Below are positions 6,818 to 45,093 of a stretch of DNA of 64,000 bases, one piece after another. The notes beneath the pieces are model-generated. The model worked only from the letters and a program-made list of their open reading frames with translations, searched no databases and was not told the DNA's origin. The position numbers and the translations under genes are program-made. The stretch lies in assembly GCA_977017645.1 (NCBI GenBank), contig OZ360221.1, positions 192,696,001 through 192,760,000 on the forward strand, read 5' to 3'. Source of the stretch: Torpedo marmorata. Taxonomy: Eukaryota. Positions within the stretch are counted from its first letter, which is position 1. Each line of letters starts with the position of its first letter.

Positions 6818-8498
6818 ACAGCCTACAAAGCGAGGGCGAACACTATAGATGGCTGTGATGCTTCACTACCGATGAGCTGAACACTTTCTATGCCTGCTTT
6901 GAGAAGAGGGACCAAACAGTGCCTACTAGAATCCCTCAAAAGACTGAGGACCCTGTGATATCTGTCTCTGAGGGCGACATCAGAACATCATTCAAGAGGG
7001 TGAACCCACGCAAGGCGTGAGGCCCTGACGGAGTACCTGGCAGGGTACTGAAAATCTGCGCCAACCAACTAGCCGGAGTGTTCACGGACATTTACAACCT
7101 CTCATTGCGGCAGTCAGAGGTTCCCATCTGCTTCAAAAGGGCATCAATCATCCCGGTACCCAAGAAGAGTAGTGTGAGCTGCCTCAACGACTACCGCACT
7201 AACTACTACTGTGATGAAATGCTTTGAGAGACTGGTCATGGCCAGTATTAACACGTACCTAAGCAAAGATCTGGACCTACTGCAATTCGCCTATCGTCAC
7301 AATCGCTCCACAGCAGATGCAATATCGCTGGCTCTCCACTCAGCTCTGGATCACCTCGAAAACAGCAATTCATACATACGGCTGCTCTTCATCAACTACA
7401 GCTCGGCCTTCAATACCATTATACCCTCTGTGCTGGTCAAGAAGCTACAGACTCTAGGCCTCTGTACCCCACTTTGCCACTGGATCCTTGACTTTCTCAA
7501 CGGAAGACCACAGTCAGTATGAATTGGAAACAACGTCTCCTCCTCACTGATTAGCAACACAGGCGCACACCAAGGATGTGTGCTTAGCCCACTGCTCTAC
7601 TCGTTATACACCCATGACTGTGTGGCCAGGCACAATTCCAATGCCATCTACAAGTTTGCGGATGACACCACAGTTGTCGGCAGAATCACAAACGGCAATG
7701 AGGAAGCGTAAAGGAGGGAGATAGATCAGCTCGTTGAATGGTGTAATGACAACAACCTTGAGCACAAGTCAGCGAAACCAAGGAGATGATTGTGGACTTC
7801 AGGAGGAATTCAGGGGAACACAACCCAGTCCTCATTGAGGGCTCAGTAGTGGAAAGGGTCAAGAACTTCAAATTCCTGGGTGTCAACATCTCCGAGGATC
7901 TGTCCTGGAGCCTCCACGTTGATGCAATCACAAAAAAGGCTCGTCAGCGGCTATACTTTGTGAGGTGCCTGAGGAGATTCGGAATGTCACCGAAGACTCT
8001 CGTAAACTTCTACAGGTGTACCGTGGAGAGCATTCTGGCTGGTTGCATCACTGCCTGGTATGGAGGCGCCAACTCTCAGGACAAGAATAAACTCCAGAGG
8101 GTTGTTAACTCAGACTGTGACATCACAGGCACCAAACTTCACTCCATCGAGGAGGACATCTACATGAGGCGGTGTCTTAAAAAAGCAGCCTCTATCCTCA
8201 AAGACCGCCACCACCCAGGCCATGCCCTCTTCACTCTGCAACCATCGGGAAAAAGGTACAGGAGCCTAAAGATGAGCACTCAACGGCACAAGGACAGTTT
8301 CTTCCCCGCTGCCATCAGATTCCTGAATAATCAATGAACCAAAGCCACTGCCTTACTTTTCGTGCACTATTATTTATAATTTTTTATAGTAATGTCATAA
8401 GATGGTTATAATATGAATGTTAATTGCACTATGATGCTGCCGCAAAACACCGAATTTCATGACTTGTTCATGACAATAAATTCCGATTCTGATTCTGA
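6818..8498 (+). mobile_element. Rex1/Babar-type LINE, 5'-truncated and disrupted
   Basis: [35 protein letters not shown] motifs; ends in aataaa + (attctg)n. Confidence 0.85.
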
Positions 8499-8681
8499 AT
8501 AGTGGCAATGAGAACATTTGTGATCTGTGGGAAGAAGATATCATTCTGAAACTGTCGAGCACACTGGAATAAAGTTATTCTTCTTTTGACTTCCAAAGGC
8601 TGTCTACGTTTGCAAATTTTTCAATGGGATTTAATAACCTGTTTCTGTGTCCTCTGTGTTATCTACAAGTTGATATTTGCA

Positions 8682-11432
8682 AGGATTAGAATAGAACTAA
8701 ATAATATAGGAGAAGATTTGAAAGAAGAAGTTATTTATAAATGGAATTCTAAATTATTATTAACAAGAGGGAAGAATTCTCCTATTTTTAAACATTTGTT
8801 AGAAATATGGAATAGAGTGGATAGTGAGATAGGAGGGAAAGGGTCGATTTCTCGAAAAATGCCTTTATACCAAAATAAACATTCCATTTACTGTTGATAA
8901 TCAATTATTTAAAATTTGGTTCCAAAAGGGAATTAAGAAAATAAATGATTGTTTTGAAGCTGGTAAATTTATTACTTTTCAAAGATTGAAACATAAATTT
9001 AATGTATTGAACAATACACTTTTTGCTTATTATCAAATTAGAGCGTTTTTAATTGGGAAGTTGGGTTATAGTTTGTCTCTACCAAGACAGAGTGAACTGG
9101 AATTATTAGTTACTAATGGAGGTGTAAATAAATTTATTTCTCAAATGTATAGATTGTTACAGAGAAAAATGCCTAAATTAGGAATTCACAAATCAAGATT
9201 AAAATGGGAATCAGATTTGAATGTAACAATAGATGAGGAACATTGGAAAGAATTGTTAAACTAAGTATGACGAAGATTATTAACGTTAGATATAGATTAG
9301 TGCAATATAATTTCTTTCATCAATTATATTTAACGCCTAAAAAAATTAAATAAATTTAATTCAACATTATCAGGTTTATGTTTTAGATTTAATAGAGAGG
9401 AAGGTTCTTTTGTACATTCTACATGGTTCTGTCCAAAGATATATGATTTTTGGTTGAAAGTTAAAAAATTTTTAGACAAAGTATTAAGTATTACACTCCC
9501 AATGGACCCTATGATATTTTTGTTTGGAGATATTAAAATAATTATTATTTTTTTAAAAAATTATTTTATTTAAATTTTTAAATCACAAAATACATGAGAT
9601 AAAATATAAAATTATCAAAATACATGTGATACATTTTCACCCCCCCACCCTCCCTCCCCTCCCCAACCCCCCCCCCATCCCCACTAATCTAATAAAAAAT
9701 AAAAATTAAAATAAAATAGAAAAAAGAAAGAAAAGAATAGAATGAGGGGAATACCTTCTAAACTAATTCTATTATGGAGGTCAAATATGCCAGCAGATCT
9801 GATATCTAGAGATCTTCAAATCCTTAAACCCACAGCTCTCATATATGGGCTCCAAATTTTCAAGAAAAAGTGATATTTATTACGTAAATTATAAGTAATT
9901 TTTTCAAGTGGTATACACGAACGAAGTTCTGCGTGCCATCTTTCTAGTCCTAAATCTAAATCAGATTTCCAAGTAATAGCAATGCATTTTTTGAAACAGC
10001 TAAAGCAATTCGCAAAAATTCTACTTGATACATATTTAATTTCTTTTTAATACTAAATTTTTTAATATCTCCAAATAAAAATAACATAGGATCCATTGGA
10101 AATGCAATGTTAAATACTTTATCTAAAAAATTTTTAACTTTCAACCAAAAATCTTGAATTTTTGGACAAAACCATGTAGAATGAACAAAAGAACCTTCCT
10201 CTCTATTGCATCTAAAACATAAGCCTGATAATGTCGGATTAAATTTCTTTAATTTTGTAGGTGTTAAATATAATTGATGAAAAAATTATATTGTACTAAT
10301 CTATATCTAACATTGATAATCTTCGTCATACTTAATTTACATAAATCTTTCGAATGATTTTCATCTATATTTACATTTAAATCTAACTCCCATTTTAATC
10401 TTGATTTATGCAATCCTATTTTAGGCATTTTCCTCTGAAACAATTAATACATTTGAGAAATAAATTTATTGACATCTCCATTAGTAACTAATAATTCTAA
10501 CTCATTTTGTCTCGGTAAAATTAAATCATAACCTAATTTCTCAGTCAAAAAATCTTTAACTTGATAATAAGCTAAAAATGTATTATCTGGTATATTAAAT
10601 TTATCTTTCATTCTTTGAAAGGTAATAAATTTTCCAGCTTCAAAACAATCATTAATCTTCTTAATACCTTTTTGAAACCAAATTTTAAGTAACTGATTAT
10701 TAACAGTAAATGATATAAATCCATTTTGATATAATGGCATATTTGAAGAAATTAATCCTTTTCCACCTATTTCTTTATCCGTCTTACCCCATATTTCTAA
10801 CAAATGTTTAATAATTGGTATTAATTTAGAATCCCATTTATAAATAATTTGTTCTTTAAGATTTTCTCCTATATTATTTAATTCTATTTTAATCCAAGTT
10901 AGTATTAAGATGAAATTAAATATGTATCAAATAGAATTTCTGCGAATTGCTTTAGCTGTTTCTAAGAAATGCATTGCTATTACTTAGAAATCTGATGTAG
11001 ATTTAGGGTTAGAAAGATGGCATGCAGAACTTCGTTCATGTATACCACTTGAAAAAATTACTTATAGTTTATGTAATAAATATCATTTATTTTTGAAAAT
11101 ATGGAGCCCTATATAAAAACTGTTGGTTTAAGGATTTGAAGATCTCTGGATATCAGATCTGACTGGCGAACCTATCTTCCACAATAAAATCAGTTTATAG
11201 TTGTTTTTTTTTAGATTGACATTCTCCTTACTCTATCTTTTTCTTTCTTTCTTTCATTCTTTCTTTTTAATTTTAGTAGATTAGTAGGGGTGGGAGGGTT
11301 AGGGAGGGGAGGGAGGGAGGGGGGGGTGAAAATGTATCACATGTATTTTGATAATTTTGTATTTTATTTTATGTATTTTGTGATTTAAAAATTTTAAATA
11401 AAATATTTTTAAAAATAATAATAATAATAAAA
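8682..11432 (+). mobile_element. L1/Tx1-clade ORF2 3' part, split by a nested antisense L1
   Basis: Collinear with the copy at 35830-37200. Interrupted at about 9543, resumes at about 10899 (agtattaagatg). G-rich 3'UTR and A-rich tail at 11290-11432. Confidence 0.85.
9544..10898 (-). mobile_element. L1/Tx1-clade 5'-truncated copy nested in the opposite orientation
   Basis: ORFs 10444-10803 and 9956-10144 are homologous to the host copy and to 52662-53396; tail at about 9544-9580. Confidence 0.85.
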
Positions 11433-11433
11433 A

Positions 11434-12351
11434 AACACAGGCGCACACCAAGGATGCGTGCTTAGCCCACTGCTCTACTCGTTATACACCCATGACTGTG
11501 TGGCCAGGCCATCTACAAGTTTGCCGATGACACCACTGTTTTCGGCAGAATCACAAACGGCAATGAGGAAGCGTACAGGAGCGAGATAAATCAGCTCGTT
11601 GAATGGTGTAACGACAACAACCTTGCGCTCAACGTCAACAAAACCAAGGAGATGATTGTGGACTTCAGGAGGAAGTCAGGGGAACACGACCCAGTCCTCA
11701 TCGAGGGCTCAGTAGTGGAGAGGGTCAAAAACTTCAAATTGCTGGGTGTCAACATCTCCGAGGATCTGTCCTGGAGCCTCCACGTTGATGCAATCACAAA
11801 GAAGGCTCACCAGCGGCTATACTTTGTGAGGTGTTTGAGGAGATTCGGTATGTCACCAAAGACACCCGTAAACCTTTACAGGTGTACCGTGGAGAGCATT
11901 CTGGCTGGTTGCATCACTGCCTGGTATGGAGGCGCCAACTCTCAGGACAAGAATAAACTCCAGAGGGTTGTTAACTTGGCATGTGAAATCACAGGCACTA
12001 TACTTCACTCCATCGAGGACATCTACACGAGGCGGTGTCTTAAAAAAGCAGCCTCTGTCCTCAAAGACCCCCACCACCCAGGCCATACCCTCTTCACTCT
12101 GCAACCATCGGGAAAAAGGTAAGAGCCTAAAAACGAGCACTCAATGGCACAAGGTCAGCTTCTTCCCCGCTGCCATCAGATTCCTGAATAATCAATGATC
12201 CAAAGACACTGCCTTACTTTTCATGCACTGTTATTTTTATCTTTTTTATAGTAATGTCATAAGGTCGTTATAATATGAATGTTTGCACTATGATGCTGCC
12301 GCAAAACACCGAATTTCATGACTTGTTCATGACAATAAATTCTGATTCTGA
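11434..12351 (+). mobile_element. Rex1/Babar-type LINE, 5'-truncated
   Basis: Near-identical to 7555-8498; (attctg)n tail. Confidence 0.85.
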
Positions 12352-12582
12352 AATCTGTTCCAAGATCTTGTATGTTTTCCATTTATGCAAATTATTCAGA
12401 TGTGGGGAAAAGATAAACAATTATTATCACTTGTTGATTATAAGTAAAATTGCTGGAGTCTGTGAGAAAAACCGAGCCATCTGCATAACTAGCATATCTA
12501 TGCAGAAGCAGTTAAATATGACAAATGTGAAATCCTACATTTTGCGGCTAGTTCACAGATGGCATATTGATAGCAGTTTTGA

Positions 12583-13979
12583 AATCAGAATGAGAATTTA
12601 TTGTCATGAACAAGTCATGAAATTCGGTGTTTTGCAGCATCATCATAGTCCAAACATTCATATTATAACCATCTTACAACATTACTATAAAAAATATATA
12701 AATAATAGTGCACGAAAAGTAAGGCAGTGTCTTTGGTTCATTGATTATTCAGGAATCTGATGGCAGCGGGGAAGAAGCTGTCCTTGTGCCATTGAGTGCT
12801 CGTCTTTAGGCTCCTGTACCTTTTTCCCGATGGTAGCAGAGTGAAGAGGGCATGTCCTGGGTGGTGGGGGTCTGAGGATAGAGGCTGCTTTTTTAAGACA
12901 CGGCCTCATGTAGATGTCCTCGATGGAGTGATGTCTGGTGCCTGTGATGTCACAGGCCAAGTTAACAACCCTCTGGAGTTTATTCTTGTCCTGAGAGTTG
13001 GTGCCTCCACACCAGGCAGTGATGCAACCAGCCAGAATGCTCTCCACGGTACACCTGTAGAAGTTTACGAGAGTCTTTGGTGACATACCGAATCTCCTCA
13101 GACCCCTCACAAAGTATAGCCGCTGGCAAGCCTTCTTTGTGATTGCATCAATATGGAGGCTCCAGGACAGATCCTCGGAGCTGTTGACACCCAGGAATTT
13201 GAAGTTCTTTACCCTCTCCACTACTGAGCCCTCGATGGGGACTGGGTCGTGTTCCCCTGAATTCCTCCTGAAGTCCACAATCATCTCCTTGGTTTTGCTG
13301 ACGTTGAGCTCAAGGTTGTTGTCATTACACCATTCAACGAGCTGATCTATCTCCCTCCTGTACGCTTCCTCATTGCCGTTTGTGATTCTGCCGACAACTG
13401 TGGTGTCATCGGCAAACTTGTAGATGGCATTGGAATTGTGCCTGGCCACACAGTCATAGGTGTATAACGAGTAGAGCAGTGGGCTAAGCATGCATCCTTG
13501 GAGTGCGTCTGTGTTGATAATCAGTGAGGAGGAGACGTTGTTTCCAATTCGTACTGACTGTGGTCTTCCGATGAGAAAGTCAAGGATCCAGTTGCAGAGT
13601 GGGGTACAGAGGCCTAAAGTTTGTAGCTTCTTGACCAGCACTGAGGGAATAATGGTATTGAAGGCCGAGCTGTAGTCGATGAAGAGCAGCCGTATGTATG
13701 AATTGCTGTTTTCGAGGTGATCCAGAGCTGAGTGGAGAGCCAGCGATATTGCATCTGCTGTGGAGCGATTGTGACGATAGGCGAATTGCAGTGGGTCCAG
13801 ATCTTTGCTTAGGTACGTGTTAATTCTGGCCATGACCAGCCTCTCAAAGCATTTCATCACAGTAGAAGTTAGTGCTACTGGACGGTAGTCGTTGAGGCAG
13901 CCCACACTACTCTTCTTGGGTACCGGGATGAATGATGCCCTTTTGAATCAGGTGGGAACCTCTGACTGCTGCAATGAGA
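12583..13979 (-). mobile_element. Rex1/Babar-type LINE with a 386-aa open RT fragment
   Basis: ORF 12745-13905: [35 protein letters not shown]. Confidence 0.9.
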
Positions 13980-18492: not shown

Positions 18493-18954
18493 ACAATAAT
18501 TCATTAAAGAAAAATCATTGTTACCAAAATCTTTGTAAATCATGCAACCTGCTCAGTTTCTCCAAAAGATTTTCTTCTTTTACAAACCATGCAACCCCTT
18601 GGGGTAAAAGGTGTACACTGCCCATCAAAGAACTACAATAAAGGAATCAATGCTGGTTTTGGGTGACACTCCACCTGGCATCAAAGTACAATCACCACAA
18701 GGTCCAAAACAACATATACCATGTCACGGTTTGGTTGGTGTATCGGTGAGAACAACGCCTTTACAGCACCAGCAATCGGGAACGGGGTTCGAATCCACGC
18801 TGTCTATAAGGAGTTTGTACGTTCTCCCCGTGTCTGCGTGCGTTTTCCCCGGTAGCTATGGTTTCCTCCCACCATTCGAAACATACCGGGGGTGTAGGTT
18901 AATTGGGTGTACATTGGGCGGCACGGACACGTGGGCCAAATGGCCTGTTACTGT

Positions 18955-20452
18955 AAAAAACACAAATGCTGGAGAAACTCAGCAGGTCAAACAGTGTCTT
19001 TTATGCAGCAAAGGTAGAAATACATAACCGACGTTTCGAGCTTGAGCCCTTAATCAAAGTATGAGAAAATGCCGGCAGGCGTCCGAACAAAAGAGTGAGG
19101 GGGGAAGGGGGGGTGGCAAAGGCAGGAGATGATAGGTGGAGAAAGGAGGGAGGGGACAGCAGCAAAGAGGGGGAGGAGGGATGGCTGGGTGGGCGGAAAA
19201 TAACTGGAAGGACAGGTAAGGGGGGAGGGGAAGGAAAAGACAAGCAGGTTTAGTGGAAAGCAGAAAAGTCAATGTTAATGCCATCTGGCTGGAGAGTGCC
19301 CAGACGGAAAATAAGACGTTGTTCCTCCAATTTGCGGGCAGAGAAATGTCCGTCTCCGCCGCATCTGTTCCCAAGATGAGGTCTTCCAGTCCAGATCTTC
19401 TGAAATGTCTGCCTTCTTCCACAAACGTGGCTTCCCCTCCACCACCATCAACTCAGCCCTCACCTGCAACTCCTCCATTTCCCGCTCATCTGCCCTGGCC
19501 CCCTCTGCCCCCAGATGCAACAAACATAGAATCCCCCTCATCCTCACCTACCACCCCACCAGCCTCCGCATCCAACACATTATCCGCCGGAATTTCCGGC
19601 ACTTACTACAGGATCCCACCACCAAACACATTTTTCCTTCTCCTCCGATCCCTCCGCGATTCCCTCGTGCACTCATCCCTCCCCACCCATCGCACCCCCG
19701 GCACCTTCCCCTGTGCCCGCAGGAGGTGCAACTCCTGCGCCCACACCTCCCCCCTCACCACGGTCCGGGGCCCCAAACAGGCCTTTCAAGTGAAGCTGCA
19801 CTTCACTTGTACATCCAGAGAACTTATTTACTGCATCCGGTGCTCCCTTCGTGGCATTCTCTACATCGGAGAGACCGGTCGTAGATTGGGAGATTGCTTC
19901 GCTGAGCACCTCCTCTCCGTCCGCAACAACAGCGACCTCCCAGTAGCCAACCATTTCAATTCCGAGTCACACTCCCACACTCACATGTCTGTCCATGGCC
20001 TTATGTACTATCCCACCCAGCCTACCCGCAAATTGGAGGAACAACATCTCATTTTCCGTCTGGGCACTCTACAGCCAGATGGCATTAACATTGACTTTTC
20101 TCTTTTCCACTAAACCTGCTTGCCTTTTCCTTCCCCTCCTCCCTTACCTGTCCTTCCAGTTTTTTCCACCCACCCAGCCATCCCTCCTCCCCCTCTTTGC
20201 TGCTGTCCCCTCCTTCCTTTCTCCACCTATCTTCTCCTGCCTTTGCCGCCCCCCCCTTCCCCTCCCCCTCACTCTTTTGTTCGGACACCTGCCAGCATTT
20301 TCTCATACTTTGATGAAGGGCTCAAGCCTGAAACGTCGGTTATGTATTTCTACCTTTGCTACATAAAAGACATTGTTTGACCTGCTGAGTTTCTCCAGCA
20401 TTTGTCTTTTTTACATCAACTACGGTGTCTACAGATTTTTGTGATTTACTTT
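18955..20452 (+). mobile_element. Penelope-like element, 5'-truncated, with GIY-YIG endonuclease, inverted terminal segment and 14-bp TSD
   Basis: LIYCIRC..LYIGETGRRL..EH..VANHF..E..LIFRLGTLQPDGINIDF. 18955-19340 is an inverted copy of about 20030-20413. TSD tggcctgttactgt at 18941-18954 and 20453-20466. Confidence 0.9.
20309..20345 (+). ncRNA. Minimal hammerhead-ribozyme-like motif in the Penelope terminal repeat
   Basis: (T)TGATGA-agggctcaagcct-GAAA-cgtc; Penelope elements are known to carry minimal hammerheads. Confidence 0.55.
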
Positions 20453-20962: not shown

Positions 20963-20970
20963 AATACAAG

Positions 20971-21602
20971 TATAAATAACGGTGACTTCGCTCCACCAAT
21001 AGTCACCTGGAGGCTAAGTGTGGTCCTTGCTTTTGACGCGTTTTAATTAATTTACTAACAAAGTCCAATATGTTCAAAACCTTTATTTTCACACATGACT
21101 TGCAGTAATCTTCAATGACTTTAATATAAACAGTTCTTGTAAACGATGTATGATGAGTTCCTTTAAATAGTTCTTTAAACAATTCCAAAACGATATGAAA
21201 CACTGTAGATGATGTTAAAGTTATAAAAACATTATAAAACGATATAAAACGGTCAATAAAGATGTGGAGACCTCACTCACCCTCCATACATCTCTATCCT
21301 TTCTTTGTTCTCTCTCTCTAATGGCTCTGCGCATCCTACCCCGCGCATACTACAACTCCCAGCCTCCCACGCGCACAATGACGTCACTCCATACTGCGCA
21401 TGCGCCCGTCGGCACTCCCGCGCATGCGCATATCAAAGAACGGGCCGACGACGGCCCACAGAACAACGCAAGCGCTCCAAGGCCCGACGTGGCCTCGGAG
21501 CGCTCCGAGGACGGCCTGGTGAACAACGCGAGCGCTCCAAGGCCCGACTAGACATCGGAGCGCCGCAACAACGGTAAGTTAAACGAGCCTACGGCTCTTA
21601 CA
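20971..21602 (-). repeat. 3' LTR
   Basis: Direct repeat of 26281-26912; one substitution noticed by eye (gcgcacaatg vs gcacacaatg). Confidence 0.95.
21379..21430. promoter_or_regulatory. LTR motif cluster: CRE (TGACGTCA) and two NRF1-like GCGCATGCGC sites; also in the 5' LTR at about 26689-26740
   Basis: tgacgtca 21379-21386, tgcgcatgcgc about 21395-21405, gcgcatgcgca about 21420-21430. Confidence 0.55.
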
Positions 21603-21819
21603 CCGGCCCCTAATTATTATAATTAGACGTAATGTCTTGAATAATAATTACACTATAAATTATAAATAACAATAACCATAATATTCAAAACAATACAAAT
21701 CTTCTTTCTTCCTTCTTCATAAATCTAGAGTTTACCATAACTCTGATTCAACAAAAGTCTGTAACCTGTGAAATATACAACAACAAATAAAGCCAGATCA
21801 CATTTATCAAAGTTCCTCT

Positions 21820-21990
21820 GTCTCCAACAAAAGGCAGACCTTATTAATAGGTCTGTTTAGAAAACCAGTCTTAGTTTTAATTCGCACTTGACGCACAAGT
21901 CCTCTTTGTCTTGAAAAGTCTCAATAATCTTTTCCAAGTAACCAGGAATTTCTTGAAGTTGAACCATCCATAACAATCACAATGTCTCTT
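21820..21990 (-). pseudogene. BEL/Pao integrase C-terminal (DUF5641-like) remnant
   Basis: DIVIVMDGSTSRNSWLLGKIIETFQDK / GLVRQVRIKTKTGFLNRPINKVCLLLE, frameshifted, downstream of the long ORF stop. Confidence 0.8.
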
Positions 21991-22026
21991 TAAAGTTCTT
22001 CCATCTTCACAATCCGAGTCAAAACG

Positions 22027-25000
22027 TCAACCAGTAAACCTCAAATCCTCCTCAGACAAAATAGATACAGTTTTTCTTTTGAATTTAACATGAGGCACTT
22101 CTTCAGCATGTCGTTTCACTTTATTCCTTTCTTCAGTATTCCACTTCTCATGTGAAGAATTTAAACTCTTAGAATTAGAATTTGAATATTTATCTGATCC
22201 TTTCGATTTTAAACAGGTCTGTTTAACCACTCTGGTTTCTATTGCTCTTTCCTGCAATTCTAAATCCAATTTTGCAACTTTCAATTCAGTCTCAGCTCCT
22301 TCCGAGAAATTAATAATTTGATCTGAAGTCAAAATATCATGTGATACATGGATATTTCCATTGTCAATCCTGTTGCGGCAAACTTGAAATTTTTTAATTT
22401 CTTCATCTTGTTTGTTACATTTCTGCAATGCAATATCACATTCTTTCTGCATTGTTAATTGTTGAACATTCAATTTACATTCTTGATTGGTTTTTAAAGT
22501 CAACTGTTTTGAGTTATTAAACAATAACTTGTTCTCTTTTAAAACATTAATCTCTTCCTCCAACCTTTTACATTTTGATAATGCTGAATCTCTTTCCTCA
22601 ATAACTGTATTCATTTCTTCAGCAGTTATTCTTTTCTTCCGCTTTCTGACTTTGCGAGTTTTACTTACAATTAAATCTCTTTGTTTACTGTTTTCTTGAT
22701 TATATAATATTTCCAATTCCCCTTTCAACATTTTGTTCTCTGAATTCAATTGCATTAAATTATCATTCACATTATTCTTTATTCCATCAGCACAATTTTC
22801 TGTGTTTTTCAGTTTTACATCACATTGCAATATTTTTTCATTAGCTTTGTCTGTTGTATTCTCTGAACTACAAAATCTACATTCAGATTTGTTTTCAGTC
22901 ACTTGTTTAATTCCTGTATTTGATTCAATTACACATGAATGATCAATAGTATTATTTGCAACATCTTCTAATACCTCACTTTCATCCTTTTCTGACGAAA
23001 TTAATTCCTTCAATGTTGTTTTAAATACCATTGATTTATTTTCACATTGACCTGTTTTCTTTTCTTCAAAAGTGATTTTCTTATTCACGGTTTTTTGCTC
23101 TTCGCTTAACTCTTCAACTTTCTCAACCGAAATTTTATTAATATTTATCGCTACCTGTTCCTGAGCAATATCATTATTTCTTTCCATTGGTCCATTGATT
23201 GCCCAACCAAGCATGGTTCTAATAGCGTAAGGTCCATTCCTTTTACTTTCTATTACTTCTTTTGGTTCCAAAACCTTTGGCACATCTGAACCAATCAGCA
23301 TTTCTATCTCAGAATTAATTTCAGGTAAATAAACTTTCCACAGATAAGCTAAATGATGGATATTCCTTTGATGAGGAATATTTCCTTCATTCACAGGCAT
23401 AGTCTTCTGAGTATATACACTTGGAAGATCACAAAATTTTTTGTCATCCAATCCAGCAACCTCTAAGCCTGAAACAATGTTAGTTTCAACAACCTTTTCT
23501 TGTCCCATGGTTTTTAACATAATTCTTGATCTTTTTCCTTGAATATTAAGCTTATTCATTAGTCCTTCCGTGCAAAAAGATGCAGTGCTGCCTGGGTCTA
23601 GAAATGCATATGTTTTTACTATTGCATCCCCTTTCTTGGCCTTGACTTGTACAGGCACTATTGAAAGTTTGCAGTTATTCACCCCGGCCCCAGTAAGACC
23701 ACTTGTCTGAACCGAGGTTATAACATTATTTTCTGTTGTTTCCTTTGTTTCTGTTTGCTCCTTTTCCAATTCCTTGTTTCTGTTATGGATATGCAAAATT
23801 CTAGGATGTTTTAAATTGCATATGTTACAATTAATTCGCTTCTCGCAGTTTTTACTGATGTGCCCTTTACACAGACAGCTAAAACATATTCCATTTTCCT
23901 TTAAGAAAGCGATCTTTTCCTTATGTTCCTTCTTTTCCAATCGTAAACACATTTCCAAAGCATGTCCACCTTTACAGAACAAACAACTCTTTTCATTAGG
24001 CAAACTTTCCTTTTCCTTATTTACTTTGTCATTTTCTTTACTTATAACTTGCACATTAGTAGCAAAAGTACTCCTTTTTAATTTCGGACTAGACTGTGAA
24101 TTAGACTTCCTTACATCTTTGCTCATTGAATTATCTCTGGTATTTCCATATAGTGGATCTGTTTCAACGTACACTTGTCGTTCAAGAAAATTTACCAAAT
24201 CCTTTAAGGTAATTTTTCGACCGTAATTTACTTGTAAATCACAAGCCAAATTTCTCCATCTATCCCATACCTTGTAAGGTAATTTTTCTAAAATGATTCG
24301 CATATTACTATGCACATCAAGCTCACGAATACTATAGATTTCTTCCATAGCATTACAACATCCTCTTAAAAACAGAGTAAACTCTTGCAGAGCCTTTACA
24401 TCATTTTGTTTTATTGATGTCCATTTAAGAGCTTTATCCATATAAGCTAAAGCAATTCGATGCTTGTTGCCAAAATATTGTTCCAATAAAGCCTTAGCTT
24501 TGTCTAATCCTCTTCCTGAAGACATTTGTTTACAACTTTTTACCAGTTCTTTTGGATGTCCCTTTGTGAACATTTCCAAATAATAAAGACATTCATCACG
24601 ATCTTGACATTTATCTTCAATATTGCGTTTGAAAGATCTCATAAATGATTGATATTGAAGTGGATCACCATCAAAAGTTTGTATCTCTTTCTTGGGTAAA
24701 GAAGAGAGAGACTGTAACTGAAACAATGATGCAGCAATTTCATTTTGTCTTTCCTTGGATGACAATACATTGCTCTGTTCACTGTCTCTTGTTGCATGCA
24801 ATGTATCTGGAAACCTCACTGGTGTAGTTTCTTCCATATTTCTGATGCTTGACTCATATAACAAAGAAGCTGCTTCGTTCGACCGAACCCAAGCTGCAGC
24901 TTTGCTTTCAGATGTTACTATTGGTACATGTGACTCGATACCAATATGCTCTTGAAAGGTTTGTGCTTGTATATGTAAGTTTTGTATCCTTGGTTCTAAA

Positions 25001-25875
25001 ATATCTATCCTTTTGGTTGGTTTCTTTTCCTGTGATTCCTTTTTTAAATATGACCTTTTATTATCAGACACTTTAGATAATTTACTTCTAGCACCAGATA
25101 CCATTGAGCCTTCTATTGCTTTCTTTTCTGCCTTGGCAATAGCAATGTTTGCTTTCAGCTCCTGCTGTTCTTTTTTCTTTCTTAACTGCTCTTGTCTCTT
25201 TCTTAGTTGTTGGTTCTGCATCAGCTGCTCCTCCTGTTGTCTCTGCCTCAGCCGTTGTCTCTGCCTCAGCTGCTCCTCCTTTAGTTCCTCCTCCTGTTCT
25301 TCTAAAACATGTTTATCCTTAAGAAATTCTTGTTGTGCAAGAAGAGCGGCCAATTTAACATCAATCTTTGTACGTGACGATGCAGAACTTGAAGTACGAG
25401 AAACTCTGGAGCTCGAACCAGAACTTCTTTTGCTTCTCCTGCTTTCAGCATTTGAGACACTGTCACTTGCTTGTATTTCGTCCTGCAGTTCATATGTTGT
25501 CTTCATACTTACCTCTTTATCCAATTCAAATTGTATATCCTTTGCATCTTCTACCACTTCAATTTCTTCATCATTTGTTGACACAATTTCAGCCATTTCC
25601 AAGTTATCTTCTTGTTCATCTAATGAAGCTGCCTCTTCATCCTTTGCCTGCTTCAATCTTTCGATAAGAGCCCTTTTATTTCCACTTATGTCCTTTTTCA
25701 GTCGCTTCAATTCTTCTTTAATATCCGCAACCTTCATGTCTTCAATACGTTGGTCCTCAACAGCAACATCAGCGGTTGCTGCGTCAGCTGCTGATATATC
25801 AGTAGCTGCTGTATCAGTGGCTGCTGCGGCCATTTTACTCGTCTTGTTCCTCTTTCCTTCAAGCATACACAACAC
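22027..25875 (-). CDS. BEL/Pao Gag-protease fusion: SAP domain, coiled coil, DUF1759-type Gag, three Cys/His knuckles, aspartic protease, MIPOL1-like coiled coils
   Basis: Open 1282 aa. SAP MKVADIKEELKRLKKDISGNKRALIERL; LPKKEIQTFDGDPLQY; CLFCKGGH, CFSCLCKGH, CNICNLKHPRILH; YAFLDPGSTASF; GPYAIRTMLGW. No RT DD motif region. Likely start is ATG 25833 (AAAATGG). Confidence 0.9.
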   Translation of the reverse strand: MLCMLEGKRNKTSKMAAAATDTAATDISAADAATADVAVEDQRIEDMKVADIKEELKRLKKDISGNKRALIERLKQAKDEEAASLDEQEDNLEMAEIVSTNDEEIEVVEDAKDIQFELDKEVSMKTTYELQDEIQASDSVSNAESRRSKRSSGSSSRVSRTSSSASSRTKIDVKLAALLAQQEFLKDKHVLEEQEEELKEEQLRQRQRLRQRQQEEQLMQNQQLRKRQEQLRKKKEQQELKANIAIAKAEKKAIEGSMVSGARSKLSKVSDNKRSYLKKESQEKKPTKRIDILEPRIQNLHIQAQTFQEHIGIESHVPIVTSESKAAAWVRSNEAASLLYESSIRNMEETTPVRFPDTLHATRDSEQSNVLSSKERQNEIAASLFQLQSLSSLPKKEIQTFDGDPLQYQSFMRSFKRNIEDKCQDRDECLYYLEMFTKGHPKELVKSCKQMSSGRGLDKAKALLEQYFGNKHRIALAYMDKALKWTSIKQNDVKALQEFTLFLRGCCNAMEEIYSIRELDVHSNMRIILEKLPYKVWDRWRNLACDLQVNYGRKITLKDLVNFLERQVYVETDPLYGNTRDNSMSKDVRKSNSQSSPKLKRSTFATNVQVISKENDKVNKEKESLPNEKSCLFCKGGHALEMCLRLEKKEHKEKIAFLKENGICFSCLCKGHISKNCEKRINCNICNLKHPRILHIHNRNKELEKEQTETKETTENNVITSVQTSGLTGAGVNNCKLSIVPVQVKAKKGDAIVKTYAFLDPGSTASFCTEGLMNKLNIQGKRSRIMLKTMGQEKVVETNIVSGLEVAGLDDKKFCDLPSVYTQKTMPVNEGNIPHQRNIHHLAYLWKVYLPEINSEIEMLIGSDVPKVLEPKEVIESKRNGPYAIRTMLGWAINGPMERNNDIAQEQVAININKISVEKVEELSEEQKTVNKKITFEEKKTGQCENKSMVFKTTLKELISSEKDESEVLEDVANNTIDHSCVIESNTGIKQVTENKSECRFCSSENTTDKANEKILQCDVKLKNTENCADGIKNNVNDNLMQLNSENKMLKGELEILYNQENSKQRDLIVSKTRKVRKRKKRITAEEMNTVIEERDSALSKCKRLEEEINVLKENKLLFNNSKQLTLKTNQECKLNVQQLTMQKECDIALQKCNKQDEEIKKFQVCRNRIDNGNIHVSHDILTSDQIINFSEGAETELKVAKLDLELQERAIETRVVKQTCLKSKGSDKYSNSNSKSLNSSHEKWNTEERNKVKRHAEEVPHVKFKRKTVSILSEEDLRFTG

Positions 25876-26280
25876 TAGTCAAACAACAGTCCCCAATGGA
25901 CCAGCGGCAGCAATTCCAATCTGTGTTCTTACTTGCTAAAGATACACAGAAGGAGTCCACAGACTTATGCCTACCACTTCAAATGACTGTAATGTGCTGC
26001 AATCCACAAACGAGCTTCAACCACAACATCCGTCACTAATATCACTGATTTTCCAAAAAATAGTTTCTCCAACGTATTTATAGGACACTTTACTATAAGA
26101 TTTGAAGCTTTAAATCCCTCTCTGGCTGTTATTCATGGCAGATGGAAGTGGATTACAAACTGCCCCCAACTCGAGGCATCTCCAAAATGGCCACCAATTT
26201 ATATCAGTCCAAAGCACAGAGAGTTTTTTCTATCTTCTTTCCTTCAAACTTCTGTTCCAAACAGCCAGCCCTTTATTGAC

Positions 26281-26912
26281 TATAAATAACGGTGACTTCG
26301 CTCCACCAATAGTCACCTGGAGGCTAAGTGTGGTCCTTGCTTTTGACGCGTTTTAATTAATTTACTAACAAAGTCCAATATGTTCAAAACCTTTATTTTC
26401 ACACATGACTTGCAGTAATCTTCAATGACTTTAATATAAACAGTTCTTGTAAACGATGTATGATGAGTTCCTTTAAATAGTTCTTTAAACAATTCCAAAA
26501 CGATATGAAACACTGTAGATGATGTTAAAGTTATAAAAACATTATAAAACGATATAAAACGGTCAATAAAGATGTGGAGACCTCACTCACCCTCCATACA
26601 TCTCTATCCTTTCTTTGTTCTCTCTCTCTAATGGCTCTGCGCATCCTACCCCGCGCATACTACAACTCCCAGCCTCCCACGCACACAATGACGTCACTCC
26701 ATACTGCGCATGCGCCCGTCGGCACTCCCGCGCATGCGCATATCAAAGAACGGGCCGACGACGGCCCACAGAACAACGCAAGCGCTCCAAGGCCCGACGT
26801 GGCCTCGGAGCGCTCCGAGGACGGCCTGGTGAACAACGCGAGCGCTCCAAGGCCCGACTAGACATCGGAGCGCCGCAACAACGGTAAGTTAAACGAGCCT
26901 ACGGCTCTTACA
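26281..26912 (-). repeat. 5' LTR
   Basis: Direct repeat of 20971-21602. Confidence 0.95.
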
Positions 26913-27014
26913 ACAAGAAATAAGTTTACTTTATCACACAAAATCAACAACAGTGCTTGAGTTACTTTTTGAAAATCTGTGTTGTGAAGGTAAACTAGAA
27001 AATCTGTTGATATT

Positions 27015-32059: not shown

Positions 32060-34836
32060 ATTAACTTCCCTCATTAAAAAAGACGAGTCTAAAAATTCTT
32101 TACTTTGAGTATTTAATCTAGGTAACTTAATTTTAGATAAAAATTAATTAATTTTAGAATCATCTTCATCAATCTGAGATTTATATAAATTCAAATAAAA
32201 ATCCTTAAAAGAATCATTTTTTTCTCAAGGTTTATATGTTATTTTCTTAGAATTCTTTTTTATAGCATTTATAGTTCTAGAAGTTTGATCTTTCTTTAAT
32301 TGCCACGCCAACACTTTATGTGCTCTTTCTCCCAATTCATAATACCTTTGCTTAGTTCTTTTAATTAATTTTTCAATTTTATATGTTTGTAACATATTAT
32401 AATGCAATTTTTTCCCAATTAAATTTTTTCTCTTTTCTTCTGATCTCTTTTTTTGTAAGTCCTTCTCCAAAAATTTAATCTCCCTCTCCAAATTATCTAC
32501 CTCCCAAACATAGTCCTTCTTAATTTTTGCTGAATAACTTATTATTTGGCCTCTTAAATAAGCCTTTAAAGCTTACCAAATAATAAATCTCCACCTATAT
32601 ATAGTTTTTTTCTTTTTCTGGAATTATACAAGTCATTAACGAGCTTGTGTTACCCTATCTTGGACTTGTGAGGACAATAAAAACATATCTATCCTAGAAT
32701 ATGAATCATGTCTAAAAGAATAAAAAGAATAATCTTTTTCTCTTGGGTTCAGTTTTATCCAAATATCTATTAAGTTTAAGTCTTTCATCAAAATAAGAAT
32801 TCTTTTAGCAATTTTAGATTTAACAACTGATTTCGATATTTTATCCATTATCGGATCTAAACAACAATTAAAATCCCCACCAATTAAAATATTATCATTA
32901 GCTTCTGACAAATGCATAAAAGAATCTTGAATAAATTGTTCATCTTCCATATTTGGTACATATATATTCATAAGTGTCCACAATTCTGAATATATCTGAC
33001 AATGTATTAAAACATATCTACCTACCACGTCTATAACCACAGATTGTATTTTAAAAGATAAATTTTTATTAACTAATATAGCAACTCCTCTTGCTTTAGA
33101 ATTAAATGAAGATGCAACCACTTGGCCAACCCATTCTCTCTTCAACTTCTGATGTTCTAAATCTGTCAAATGTGTCTCTTGTAAAAAAGCTATATCTACA
33201 TTTAACTTTTTAATATATGCTAAAGTTTTCTTCCTTTTAATTGGGTTATTTAGCCCATTTATATTAATACACTACATTTATTGTATTACTATCCATCATT
33301 ACTAAATCTTAATAAGTCTCTCTCCATCAGATCCACCAGCACCCTCCTCCACATTTGTAATCTATTTGACATCTCCTTAAAAAGAAAAAGAAAGAAAAAT
33401 AAAATAAAAAAGAAACAAAACCCCACTGTATACAATACTGGCAAAATTACCCCAGTATTACCCCCCTCCATTACTCGGGAAGTGGCCCTCGCCACTAAGG
33501 TGGTATGCGGCTATGAAGGAGAAAACAAAAAGTCCACCCCACCCCCCCAACAGATTTTACACAACATTTATTATCATACCTTCATTTAGCTTCTTCAATG
33601 TCCTTATGAACTTGGACTTCACCAATCTCGATCTCGGCTTCATCCTCTTTTCCTGAAGTACTTGGCAAAGAAACTTGCGACGGTGAAATATCTTGAACTT
33701 GGTGATGTTCCATCAAATCTTGATCTTTCTTCAAATACGGAAGAGAATTTGCATGTTGGAGCGCTTGTTGACAATCCGTAAAAAAACAAGATTGATTCCC
33801 TGTAGACTGAACCTTCAAAACCGTAGGATATCTAAACGAAAACTTATACCCCTTATTCCAAAAAATCGCTTTTGCTGGATTAAATTCCTTTCGTTTATTA
33901 ACTATAACTGAACTCAAATCAGGGTAAAAGAAAACTCTATTCCCCTGAACCATCAATGGACCATTCTGCGACTTAGCGTTTTGAATAGCTAATTTCAATA
34001 CCTTCTCTTTATCCGGATATCGAAGACATTTAACTAAAACTGAACGTGATCTTTGACCAACATACGGTTTCCCCCTACCAACTCTATGTACTCTCTCTAA
34101 CTCCAGTCCATACTTAAAATTATCAATACCCAGAGCATCTGGAATCCATTTTTGAAAGAATTCAGTCGTATCATACCCTTTGAAATTTTCAGGTAGTCCC
34201 ACAATTTTAATATTGTTCCTCCGGCTCTGATTGTCCAATACATCTAGCTTTTGTAAAAGTTCATTTCTTTGCTGCTTCCAACCTGTAAATGAATCTTCTA
34301 CTTTATAAACTCTATCTTTATAATCCACCATTTCTTCATAATGTTCTTTAACCTCTTTTTCAATTTCTTGAACTTTCACTTTTACTATATTCACAGTATT
34401 TGTCTGTCTTTTCATATCTTGCTTAATATCTTTCATTTCATCTTCAATTCCATTAAGTCTAAGCTCCAAACGATATTCCATCGTTGATATCCTTTTTGTC
34501 ATGTTATCAATAGCCTTAAGTATTTGTTGAGCTACCGATATTTCAATCTCTTCTCCACTTGAATCTTCAGCCTCTCCCTCCATTTCTCCCATTTCTTCTT
34601 CCATTATTCCTTTCTTCTCTTTCTTTTTATCTTCTGAATCTGATGAAGTTTCAAGTCCCACAACATATTGTAATGATTGTGGGACGTCTCCTTTGCTGTC
34701 AGCCTTATCTGACAGCTCCCGTTGTCTATCGCGCATGCGCACCGTTTCGCGCATGCGCGGTTGCTCAGTTGAGATTTGTAGTTCTGTAGTCTTCTTTCGA
34801 GCACCGGCACAATTTTCCCCAGCTCCCCGGGACGGC
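32060..34836 (-). mobile_element. L1/Tx1-clade 5' portion: ORF1 (Transposase_22-like) plus ORF2 AP-endonuclease
   Basis: ORF1 LDNQSRRNNIKIVGLPE, LERVHR, FFYPDLS. EN motifs LQETH, KARGVAIL, NIYVPN, IGGDFN, SRIDMF. Confidence 0.9.
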
Positions 34837-37199
34837 AGATTTAATCCATGTAGATCAAGCTGGTTTTATTAAGAATAGATATTCAAAAGATAACATAGCT
34901 AGATTAATTAGTTTAATTAATGTGGAAAAAAAAGAGATGATTTAGCATTAGTATTAACATTAGATGCTGAAAAGGCTTTTGACAGATTAGAGTGGAATTA
35001 TTTATTTAAGGTATTTGGGAAATTTGGCTTTGAAACTACATTCATTAATTGGATTAAAACTATATATATAATCTGCTAAAGTGGTGACAAATGGACAAAT
35101 TTCTTCAAAATTTTCTTTGACTAGGTCAACTAGACAAGGATGTCCTTTGTCGCCAGCACTGTTTATTTTAGAAATAGAACTTTTGGCAGAATTAATTAGA
35201 CAAGATATTAAGATTGCAGGTATTAAAGTTGGAAGAGAAGCGCATAAAATTAGTTTATTTGCAGATGATGTATTGATTTATATGACAAAACCTATTACTT
35301 CTTTAATACAATTGACTGTTTTATTGAGAGATTATGGGGAAATATCTGGTTATAAAATTAATTCTGATAAAACAGAAATTTTGGCATTGACACAAGGGGA
35401 TTATAGTAAATGTAAAGAAATTACACAATTTAAATGGTCAAAGGAAGGAATTAAATATTTGGGAATAAAGATTGATACAAAATTAACTAATTTATAAAAA
35501 TTAAATTATTTACCATTATTTATGAAAATTAAAAAGGATTTAGAAAGTTGGAAGGACTTACCTATAACTTTAATAGGAAGGGTAAACTGTATTAAAATGA
35601 ATGTCTTTCCAAGAATTCAAAATATTTTTCAATCAATTCCTTATGAAATCCCTTCGAAATTTTTTAAAGATTTAAATTTAATTATTAGGAAGTTTTTGTG
35701 GAAAGGAAAGTTGGCTAGAGTAGGTATGGAGAAGTTAACTTGGAAATATGAAATGGGTGGTTTGCAACTTCCTAATTTTCAAAATTATTATAAATTTGTT
35801 AATGAAATGTTTGATTTAGCTAAGTCTTCTGCTTGGATTAGAATAGAATTAAATAATATAGGAGAAGATTTGAAAGAAGAAGTTATTTATAAATGGAATT
35901 CTAAATTATTATTAATGAAAGTGAAGAATTCTCCTATTTTTAAACATTTGTTAGAAATATGGAATAGAGTGAATAGGGAGATAGGAGGGAAAGGGTCGAT
36001 TTCTCCAAAAATGCCTTCATATCAAAATAAACATTCCATTTACTGTTGATAATCAATTATTTAAAATTTGGTTCCAAAAGGGAATTAAGAAAATAAATGA
36101 TTGTTTTGAAGCTGGTAAATTTATTACTTTTCAAAGAATGAAAGATAAGTTTAATGTATTGAATAATACATTTTTTGCTTATTATCAAATTAGAGCATTT
36201 TTAGTTGGGAAGTTAGGTTATAGTTTGACTTTACCAAGACAGAGTGAACTAGAATTATTAATTACTAATGGAGGTGTAAATAAATTTATTTCTCAAATGT
36301 ATAGACTGTTTCAGAGAAAAATCCCTAAAGTAGGAATTCATAAATCAAGATTAAAATGGGAATCAGATTTTAATGTAACAATAGGTGAAGAACATTGGAA
36401 AGAATTATGTAAACTAAGTATGACGAAGATTATTAATGTTAGATATAGATTAGTTCAATATAATTTTTTTCATCAATTATATTTAACGCCTAAAAAATTA
36501 AAGAAATTTAATTTGACGTTATCAGGTTTATGTTTTAGATGTAACAAAGAGGAAGGTTCTTTTGTACATTCTACATGGTTTTGTCCAAAGATTTATGATT
36601 TTTAGTTGAAAGTTAAAAAAAATTTAGATAAAGTATTGAGTATTATACTTCCAATGGACCCTATGATATTTTTGTTTGGAGATATTAAAAGAATTAGTAT
36701 TAAGATGAAATTAAATATGTATCAAATAGAATTTTTGTGAATTGCTTTAGCTGTTTCTAAGAAATGTATTGCTATTACATGGAAATCTGATGTAGATTTA
36801 GGGTTAGAGAGATGGCATGCAGAACTTTGTTCATGTATACCACTTGAAAAAATTACTTATTATTTGCATAATAATTATCATTTCTTTTTGAAAATATGGA
36901 TCCCAAATATGAAGGCTGTTGGTTTAAGGATTTGAAGATCTCTGGACATCGGATCTGACTGGCGAACCTATCCTCCACAATAAAATTAGCTTATAGATGT
37001 GTTTTTTAGATTGACATTCTCCTTATTCTATTTTTTTCTTTCTTTTTTATTTTTATTTTAGTAGATTAGTAGGGGTGGGAGGGTTAGGAAGGGGAGGGAG
37101 GGAGGGGGGGTGAAAATGTATCACAAGTATTTTGATAATTTCATATTTTACCTTATGTATTTTGTGATTTAAAATTTTAAATTAAATATTTTAAAAAAA
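34837..37199 (+). mobile_element. L1/Tx1-clade 3' portion: RT, C-terminal Cys-rich region, 3'UTR and tail
   Basis: DQAGF, LDAEKAFD, RQGCPLSP, LFADD, KYLG, CFRC..H motifs; frameshifted. Confidence 0.9.
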
Positions 37200-43101: not shown

Positions 43102-45093
43102 ATGTCTGCCAACTGGAGTGATTCTGAGATCCGCGAGCTCCTCGCCATCCCTGTGGTGAACAAAATAAACCTCCACATAACGGACACAGTGAGGGATGGA
43201 CCGATATTAGATTGGGTAGCATTAAAAATGAGAGAAAGGGGGTTTAATCACGACAAGTCCCAGGTGATTAGCAAGCTTAAATGCCTGCGTAGGAAGTACC
43301 ATCAGGTAAATGACCACAATGGCCGGAGTGGCAGGGGGTGATTGGACTGGCTGTATTTTGAACTGTGCTATGCCATCTGGGGCACAAGCCATTCAGCACA
43401 CGCAGTAGCACTATGGAGCAACATGGAGGATCCATCGTCGCCTGATGTGGTTCCAGCTGTGTCTCCCTCCTCCAGCAGCAGTCCTGATACCAGGGTCCTG
43501 AGTGGTATGGAAACAGCCCAGCAATACAGGACCTGCGCCTCAAGAGCAACCAGGTAAAAACTTATTCTTCTCGTGATCAACAAACTTTGTCATGTGTTTT
43601 GTAAGTGTGTCTGCCCATAAAGAGCGGTCTTACTAATGTAACTTGTGCTCCATTGCTTTCCAGGGTACCAGCCACCTAAGAAGAGACCGAGACCTACCAA
43701 GGCACAGGTGGTGACCCAGGAAATGAGGGAGATGTTTCACTCAATGGACCGTGAGGATGTCGAGAGGGAGCGTATTCGGCAGGAGGTGCAGAGGGCCCGT
43801 GAGGAGCGGATGAAGAGAGAGGCACAGGAGGCAGAGATGGCAGCACGTGAGGCGGACAGACGTACCCGCTCAGAGGAGGTGGCAGCACGTGAGGCGGACA
43901 GACGTACCCGGTCAGAGGAGGTGGCAGCACGTGAGGCGGACAGACGTACCGGGTCAGAGGAGATGACAGTACGTGAGGTGGACAGACGTACCCGGTCAGA
44001 GGAGATGACAGTACGTGAGGTGGACAGACGTACCCGGTCAGAGGAGGTGGCAGCACGTGAGGCGGACAGACGTACCCGGTCAGAGGAGATGGCAGCACGT
44101 GAGGTGGACAGACGTACCCGGTCAGAGGAGATGACAGTACGTGAGGTGGACAGACGTACCCAGTCAGAGGAGGTGGCAGCACGTGAGGCGGACAGACGTA
44201 CCCGGTCAGAGGAGGTGGCAGCACGTGAGGCGGACAGACGTACCCGCTCAGAGGAGGTGGCAGCACGTGAGGCGGACAGACGTACCCGGTCAGAGGAGGT
44301 GGCAGCACGTGAGGCGGACAGACGTACCCGCTCAGAGGAGGTGGCAGCACGTGAGGCGGACAGACGTACCCGCGCAGAGGAGTTGGCAGCACGTGAGGCG
44401 GACAGACGTACCCGCTCAGAGGAGGTGGCAGCACGTGAGGCGGACAGACGTACCCGCTCAGAGGAGGTGGCAGCACGTGAGGCGGACAGACGTACCCGGT
44501 CAGAGGAGGTGGCAGCACGTGAGGCGGACAGACGTACCCGCGCAGAGGAGGTGGCAGCACGTGAGGCGGACAGACGTACCCGCTCAGAGGAGGTGGCAGC
44601 ACGTGAGGCGGACAGACGTACCCGCGCAGAGGAGGTGGAAGCACGTGAGGCGGACAGACGTACCCGCGCAGAGGAGGTGGCAGCACGTGAGGCGGACAGA
44701 CGTACCCGCGCAGAGGAGGTGGCAGCACGTGAGGCGGACAGACGTACCCGCGCAGAGGAGATGGCAGGGTTTGGACAAATGTTCAAAGATTTCCAACAGG
44801 AAATGCAGAACCAGGCCTCACTCATGAGGGACATGATGACTCTAATGTCGTCCTCTGCTCGACAGCATCAACCTCCCGTGTCACTGCCACAAACTCCCGT
44901 ACGACAGTACCACACTCATCAACCCCATAGTCAGTATTTCTATCAGACACCACAGCAGAATGACTTTATGCAACACTCAGACGAGGCATATGGGTCTTTT
45001 AAATCACCCTCGTCCTCCTCCCTCCTCCAGCTGCTGGAGCGATGTGACTTTTGCAAGTGGTCATCAATGTTTGGTTTTATTGCACAGTTGTAA
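43102..45093 (+). pseudogene. Harbinger Myb/SANT-like DNA-binding protein, 2 exons, with internal stop, probable frameshift and repeat expansion
   Basis: MSANWSDSEIRELL..KLKCLRRKY..NGRSGRG*LDWLYFELCYAIWG. Intron 43554-43663 (GT..tactaat..CAG). Exon 2 has PPKKRPR (NLS-like) and the E/R-rich repeat. Confidence 0.85.
43831..44766 (+). repeat. 42-bp minisatellite, ~22 units, in frame (EEVAAREADRRTRS)
   Basis: Unit gaggaggtggcagcacgtgaggcggacagacgtacccg(g/c)(t/g)ca. Confidence 0.97.

Follow-up and report, generated by a model that had tools for sequence, protein, structure and literature searches.

A non-autonomous BEL/Pao element of Torpedo marmorata carries BRCA1, MIPOL1 and ELOA pieces in frame with Gag-protease, with a MIPOL1 exon order that suggests a circular RNA template

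Acutely transforming retroviruses are helper-dependent, with host cDNA fused to gag and pol lost. In animals, LTR-mediated retroposition has been described by Tan et al. 2016 (PMC5131818), where according to the part of the article used here several parental genes may contribute, including a four-gene case from mouse. Dong et al. 2016 (PMC4897178) report 33 mouse pseudogenes derived from circRFWD2 with LTR-rich flanks; the mechanism is called mysterious in the available portion of that text. A 2026 VGP preprint covering 244 vertebrate genomes (10.64898/2026.06.26.734816) puts MIPOL1 at the head of its list of genes most often retrocopied in cartilaginous fishes. In its available sections the list is read as selective filtering, and section 6 gives no mechanism.

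The element described here resembles all of these systems in part. Like acutely transforming retroviruses it fuses host cDNA to Gag, has lost pol and presumably depends on a helper; unlike them it has no env, resides in the germline and shows no sign of selection on the captured protein function. With LTR-mediated retroposition it shares the replacement of the internal ORF by partial spliced host RNA between the LTR parts and secondary rounds as a non-autonomous element; the described cases also have short sequence common to both sides of the joins. In the part of PMC5131818 considered, however, circRNA does not occur (the term appears 0 times) and no large family is reported, and what the present element adds to those cases is a junction of back-splice type, subfamilies in a graded series and selection on the frame over long times. 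As in maize Bs1 (PMC5131818, PMC13317346, both in excerpt), pieces of three unlinked host genes form a chimeric ORF within an LTR element. Bs1 is described there with 1-5 copies and with one piece out of frame. The element of the present vertebrate host belongs to BEL/Pao, keeps all three pieces in frame, has one of them in circularly permuted order and exists in far more copies. The circRNA-derived pseudogenes share the reversed exon junction corresponding to a back-splice, the absence of poly(A) and the association with LTRs. In the excerpt of PMC4897178 the LTR enrichment concerns the flanks only, while in our case the permuted cDNA is enclosed by a complete LTR element, continues the Gag-protease frame and has both exit points mapped. 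Each ingredient thus has a precedent (LTR retroposition, maize Bs1, mouse circRNA pseudogenes), but no report was found for their combination and scale. The original prediction knew of no description of such an element. This holds for the element itself in the literature searched, to which most subscription journals and repeat databases did not belong, but not for the class of mechanism, which is known. Two batoid genome preprints mention neither MIPOL1 nor BRCA1 nor Pao. What is new is therefore a three-gene, frame-selected cassette, likely including circRNA sequence, in a very successful non-autonomous BEL/Pao family.

The window, i.e. the whole stretch of 64,000 nt that was analysed, contains the element on its minus strand at 20971-26912. 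The 5’ LTR (26281..26912) and the 3’ LTR (20971..21602) are 632 bp long each and match at 631/632 positions. The same 5 bases are found at 20966..20970 and 26913..26917, so that the LTR pair is bounded by a short target-site duplication as in BEL/Pao elements. The 3’ LTR is 90-96% identical to the LTRs of pol-bearing sister elements. It is preceded by a motif at 21603..21620 which recurs before the 3’ LTR in sister and older copies and which we take to be the polypurine tract. LTR ends of the young family read TG...TA and some older copies end in CA; TG...CA is presumably the usual form. The base following the 5’ LTR (boundary at 26281) starts no TGG-type primer site, and priming in the young family may be unusual.

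A 5’ leader (25834..26280), common to the pol-bearing sisters, is followed by a chimeric ORF of 1268 aa counted from Met (25833-22027, minus). Its first 913 aa (23095..25833) comprise a SAP domain, DUF1759 (Pfam), three Cys/His knuckles at about 23985-23806 and an aspartic protease motif at 23604. Gag and protease in a single ORF are characteristic of BEL/Pao. Among the matches listed, 120 relatives show 42-61% identity to this part, most of them carrying PF05380 or PF18701. BEL homology ends at aa 913. Neither reverse transcriptase (RT), RNase H nor integrase was detected in the window ORF using Pfam; the sister element L091 has RT, RNase H region and integrase as expected of an autonomous BEL/Pao element. 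The window element is a non-autonomous BEL/Pao derivative. The stop codon (22027..22029) lies 424 nt ahead of the 3’ LTR and at the same place in 29/29 near copies. Downstream of it a non-coding remnant of the BEL integrase C-terminus (21834..21986, minus) shows 76% aa identity to aa 2076-2126 of a pol-bearing sister, and the DNA match to these sisters picks up again at 21988 with 94%. Eight pol-bearing sister elements with frames of 2018-2134 aa share the LTR, Gag-protease (92-95% on the DNA level) and 3’ end with the window element. The cassette aligns to 0/8 of them. An antisense frame of 327 aa (24956-25939, plus strand) overlaps the low-complexity N-terminus of Gag, and a Gag repeat region near 25230-25300 differs in length among copies.

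Between Gag-protease and the stop codon the order is BRCA1, MIPOL1, ELOA, all in one frame. It had been predicted that a MIPOL1-like host sequence in permuted order replaces Pol in frame with Gag-protease, and both parts of this prediction are borne out. The IVSKTRK...KKFQV block (22677-22381) aligns to aa ~366-466 and the LKVAKL...RVVKQT block (22296-22216) to aa 262-290 of the MIPOL1 protein P0001. A protein search with the last 359 aa gave 3 matches out of 2454 candidates, all named MIPOL1 (sawfish with E 2.2e-26, coelacanth and newt). The two blocks share 80% and 91% of their nucleotides with the mipol1 exons of the same genome, whereby a generic coiled-coil match is ruled out. A derivation of the captured part from pol was discarded likewise, as it matches neither the sister pol nor the 120 BEL proteins. 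The MIPOL1 segment is also not a regular part of BEL elements, as the cassette aligns to 0/8 sisters and 0/120 public BEL relatives match MIPOL1 at E<=0.01. No Gag-MIPOL1 fusion was found among 6549 public candidate proteins of 697-2219 aa, the sole match being a BRCA1.

MIPOL1 had been proposed as host cargo. It is present and is the middle one of three. The stretch preceding it (22678..23094) gave 3 matches among 1.84 billion proteins, all of them named BRCA1 and from cartilaginous fishes (58% aa identity to Narcine BRCA1, E 3.8e-32). It consists of two intron-free host exons with 69% and 78% identity to brca1 on C61. The stretch following MIPOL1 (22030..22212) is composed of two pieces of host eloa exons (C41; 81% and 85%) with a 111-nt in-frame deletion. 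ELOA encodes Elongin A, and this assignment derives from matches of the stretch in the older copy L105 to PF06881 (E 1.6e-17) and human Elongin-A (E 5.8e-40). The window piece stops short of the PF06881 region. Closest named homologues are batoid, namely Pristis MIPOL1 as well as Narcine and Rhinoraja BRCA1. All three inserts are spliced, in frame and derived from single-copy host genes on three contigs. Intron-free host sequence thus replaces the internal ORF between LTR-element parts, as in LTR-mediated retrocopies. That the cassette stems from spliced host RNA is almost certain. A further intron-split gene with an Elongin A domain exists besides eloa (G000:C25:175318134-175337048).

Older copies of the cassette are closer to the host genes. 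They show 90-96% identity to the host mipol1 exons, and most of them about 85-98% to the BRCA1 and ELOA exons (69-85% in the window). Three BRCA1 codons are kept by the copies and by Narcine but are lost in host brca1; hence the capture predates their loss in the host. Older three-gene copies (L094-L105) retain an ELOA region with a putative motif which we take to be a BC-box and which is lost in the young lineage. Motifs of this type are used by some viruses to recruit ubiquitin ligases.

Selection on the cassette was evaluated by aligning 349 codons with host exons. The resulting dN/dS of 0.68 compares to a neutral value of 0.73 (0.52-1.04), obtained in simulations that used the observed spectrum with its strong bias to G>A and C>T. 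Exchange quality (BLOSUM), helix propensity and loss of hydrophobic residues are all neutral. In the ELOA part amino-acid changes are slightly below the neutral number (P 0.039, uncorrected and one of several tests), and shared variants of the near copies lean towards synonymous (N/S 1.50 vs 2.56 for singleton variants, P 0.23), so that some weak protein constraint is conceivable. For comparison, Gag-protease shows dN/dS 0.43-0.50 (shared vs singleton variants P 0.025). Stop codons behave differently from residues: 11-11.5 are expected in the cassette and 0 are present, with 0/1000 and 0/1500 simulations being free of stops. Deletions against the older copies comprise 24, 120, 3, 81, 198, 3 and 111 nt, 7/7 of them in frame (chance about 1 in 2000; sizes are relative to the best-fitting of three old copies, some with own indels). 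The cassette is intact in 27/29 closest copies, and stop variants are singletons (3) and never shared (0). As residues are neutral after ~20% divergence, yet no stop arose and all seven deletions keep the frame, the open frame rather than the MIPOL1 function appears to be selected. Purifying selection on the captured protein, as known for v-onc genes, was not detected in dN/dS and residue tests. The proposed analogy with a functional transduced oncogene is hence not supported, only the frame is retained.

The simplest reading of this pattern is that translation must extend near the 3’ end. With a stop right after the protease, 1493 nt instead of 424 nt would lie ahead of the LTR, and a long 3’UTR makes retroviral RNAs decay targets unless they are protected (PMC2925335, in the part considered). 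The cassette could accordingly act as a translated stuffer that brings ribosomes to a stop close to the 3’ end and thereby shields the RNA from long-3’UTR decay, to which we assign about even chances. If ribosome transit is the sole need, any open sequence would serve. It is rather unlikely, by comparison, that the tail is a working protein module, such as a coiled coil that takes over from RT/integrase and dimerises Gag-protease or, for the older copies, an adaptor binding Elongin BC. The frame has indeed been held through ~0.2 substitutions per site and 7 deletions, a single-sequence model predicts mostly long helices at low confidence (mean pLDDT 55.9, pTM 0.22), and older copies retain the PF06881 region of ELOA. 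However, amino-acid change is neutral in rate and kind, and the successful lineage does without the PF06881 region and carries deletions in all three pieces.

To resolve the MIPOL1 order, 320 kb of the host mipol1 locus (C40) were tiled for the intervening exons; exon numbers follow our own count with the large N-terminal coding exon taken as 2. The N-terminal exon and the exon 10 region gave one match each. In the window, part of exon 7, exon 8 and exon 9 follow each other without introns (22373..22677, junctions after 22573 and 22468). They are succeeded by the start of exon 3 and part of exon 4 (22216..22372), joined through an 81-nt in-frame deletion. The older copies read exon 7 (from nt 48), 8, 9, 3, 4 and the first 18 nt of exon 5. 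Joins 7|8, 8|9 and 9|3 are exact in 13/13 rows (window, one near copy and 11 older copies), 3|4 and 4|5 in 8/8 older copies spanning them. Exon junctions are thus crossed without introns, as the original prediction required of spliced RNA. The 9|3 join (22372..22373) has 0 bases gained or lost and connects the exon 9 donor to the exon 3 acceptor, which lies 206 kb upstream in the host. No MIPOL1 sequence from outside exons 3-9 was found in any copy by a genome search with the best candidates scored. A non-colinear junction at an exact donor and acceptor, with nothing from beyond the circle-forming exons among these candidates, is what distinguishes circRNA-derived pseudogenes. Exons 3-9 total 780 nt, and two turns of such a circle contain no stop.

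The breakpoint of the permutation coincides exactly with a join of a donor to an upstream acceptor, which makes circular RNA, and not ordinary mRNA, the most likely template. The prediction of capture by template switching from spliced mRNA therefore stands with respect to splicing, but probably not with respect to a linear message. A circle as MIPOL1 template is strongly favoured by this sequence evidence, although a tandem duplication or trans-splicing yields the identical junction and counts against it. Exonic Mipol1 circRNA was detected in mouse by divergent-primer RT-qPCR (PMC9888537), and a human MIPOL1 circRNA is listed as an array entry (PMC8783515), both according to excerpts. Inverted intronic repeats were considered as support for circularisation and dropped: within 10 kb of exons 3 and 9 they are weak (60.8 bits), and the 45 inverted and 55 direct repeat matches across the whole flanking introns are uninformative in this respect.

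The copy L136 further illustrates the capture. It contains a BEL pol part, BRCA1, MIPOL1 exon 7 (from nt 48), 8, 9, 3, 4, 5 and 6 (to nt 28) and the BEL integrase end. This corresponds to 727/780 nt of the exon circle, just under one turn. Late exon 5 has matches in the host and L136 only and the start of exon 7 in the host only (genome search, best candidates scored), hence no capture exceeds one turn. With its RNase H degrading the template in its wake, an RT should not get much beyond one turn of a circle, so that the length fits. As a sign of a circle this gives modest support, coming from a single event in a single copy.

A linear RNA with the same 9|3 join could have arisen by trans-splicing or from a transient ancestral tandem duplication of the 206-kb exon 3-9 block. 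Same-strand interspersed repeats (87-89% identity) flank exons 3 and 9 and could seed unequal crossing-over; this repeat has about 15 further matches in the tile, though, and is therefore not special. Moreover each exon is single-copy in the 320-kb tile, no second late exon 5 exists except in L136, the capture ends just below one unit and MIPOL1 circRNAs are reported from mammals. We consider such a linear source improbable. Hardly plausible is a backward RT jump within ordinary mRNA at short homology, the exon-end position being fortuitous: 3 nt are common to both exon boundaries, but exon-end pairs are hit by only 3/6343 possible in-frame backward joins with >=3-nt homology in an mRNA model, which makes a chance jump unlikely, and the remaining capture joins fall inside exons.

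Returning to the circle as template, the following course is suggested. While a BEL/Pao element was being reverse-transcribed, cDNA made from co-packaged host RNAs probably took the place of its pol. RT would have switched from the 3’ end of the element onto the 780-nt mipol1 circular RNA, run nearly one round and exited onto BRCA1 sequence, which we regard as very likely. Capture joins other than 9|3 lie within exons. Possible microsimilarity at switch points amounts to ~8 nt with one mismatch at MIPOL1 exon 6/BEL and to only ~2 nt at BRCA1/MIPOL1. L136 lacks ELOA and represents a two-gene form (BRCA1 and MIPOL1) besides the three-gene form. In 10/12 of the older copies compared here, MIPOL1 and ELOA are separated by about 20 nt that start like the LTR of the family, the common filler matching the LTR start of L136 at 16/17 bases. 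ELOA therefore probably arrived later, with an LTR end joined into exon 5; an event leaving the first ~17 nt of the family’s own LTR at the join is the likely route. A BRCA1-only or longer-BRCA1 intermediate was sought in the genome, where the host alone matched. An ORF ending in integrase residues is found only in the older copy L105. Deletions later compacted the cassette. In a further copy (G000:C42:9563886-9564968) the MIPOL1 block is tandemly repeated within a single frame of 459 aa.

The element was predicted to be young and recently spread, in agreement with the near identity of its LTRs and with at least 40 dispersed matches at 98% to its 3’ part (best 40 of 4871 candidates scored). 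Twenty near copies were picked as closest to the window, a choice that favours intact ones. Among them LTR pairs are 98-100% identical in 14/20, frames of 1268-1370 aa are open in 13/20 and an exact 5-bp target-site duplication is present in 12/20 (3 fail, 5 are unresolved). A domesticated chimeric host gene at this locus is a far-fetched alternative: the 1268-aa ORF is intact, but so it is in 27/29 near copies, and the LTRs with their target-site duplication and the >=40 dispersed copies indicate a mobile passenger.

Genome searches gave 49,862 candidates for the MIPOL1 protein (best 77 scored), 6618 for the Pao pol domain and 178 for the ELOA domain kept by older forms only; these are candidates and not copy numbers. 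In 353 kb taken for host genes 4 cassette copies occur, all within the mipol1 tile. This density of ~one per 88 kb corresponds to roughly 70,000 in the 6.2-Gb genome (Poisson about 19,000-180,000, from one region). The copy number is thus at least dozens and roughly tens of thousands. The four copies (L058, L059, L067, L073) are inserted in introns of host mipol1, i.e. the source gene, one of them immediately upstream of exon 6 in the same orientation.

In Gag-protease the likeness of the older cassette copies to the window is only 65-79%. Their LTR pairs are 88-93% identical in 5/12 and 82% in one more, with none found in the rest. The divergence of Gag-protease suggests that the cassette was carried onto newer backbones. 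A tree of the MIPOL1 piece forms a ladder from a star of host and old copies (branches 0.014 for the host, 0.011-0.044 for old copies) via intermediate copies to the young group ~0.2 away. It is highly probable that the element moves by means of RT and integrase provided in trans and that recombination has transferred it to newer backbones of sister elements. Parts of the cassette are also contained in four public runs under four other organism codes, and the runs listed included none of RNA. Contig X2 spans the 9|3 join, X4 and X5 span BRCA1|MIPOL1, and X8 has loose ends at the sites of window-lineage deletions. The family is probably common to related species.

It is tempting but doubtful to regard the host-RNA patchwork itself as the cause of the success of this lineage. 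An endless-frame circular RNA together with BRCA1 and ELOA would then have served as a functional tail first (coiled coil; Elongin BC-binding) and as an obligatory translated stuffer thereafter. A pol-less element would outnumber its helper and fill several percent of the 6.2-Gb genome. This would explain why MIPOL1 heads the retrocopy list of cartilaginous fishes, and perhaps other genes listed there.

Independent of this, passive carriage by a transposon is a simpler candidate than selective filtering for the MIPOL1 retrocopies of the preprint. SUDS3, SDF2L1, SLU7 and ZNF276 are further top retrocopied genes of cartilaginous fishes in its available part (10.64898/2026.06.26.734816) and candidates for similar LTR cargo. 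Thousands of look-alikes of BRCA1, MIPOL1 and ELOA may mislead gene annotation and distort RNA-seq, circRNA calling and retrocopy counts; in a search for the parent circRNA in this species, the copies would imitate its 9|3 junction. Small RNAs against the element could also target the three host genes. The route by which circular RNA enters genomes was left open by Dong et al. 2016; the anatomy seen here would place it within an LTR element, by template switching and just under one turn. As the assembly steps are preserved as dated copies in one genome, LTR-driven exon shuffling becomes traceable stepwise. Selection on the open frame is here separated from selection on the protein, which offers a case for testing how RNA decay or translation constrains selfish elements.

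No host gene was recognised in the 64-kb window. At 43642-45093 (plus strand) an open frame of 483 aa consists of 22 copies of a 42-bp unit (95% matches) encoding a charged 14-residue repeat; it has a low-complexity Pfam match only and is possibly part of a transposon gene. Adjoining the element, a Penelope-like 3’ end with inverted terminal segments is located at 18947-20420, including what we assume by eye to be a GIY-YIG-like motif. Many LINE fragments, some as inverted pairs, occupy 7100-13979, 32636-36956 and 52383-56985, with an RT match at 12748-13947 and L1-like ORF1 frames recognised by eye at 33582-34865 and 55825-56985.
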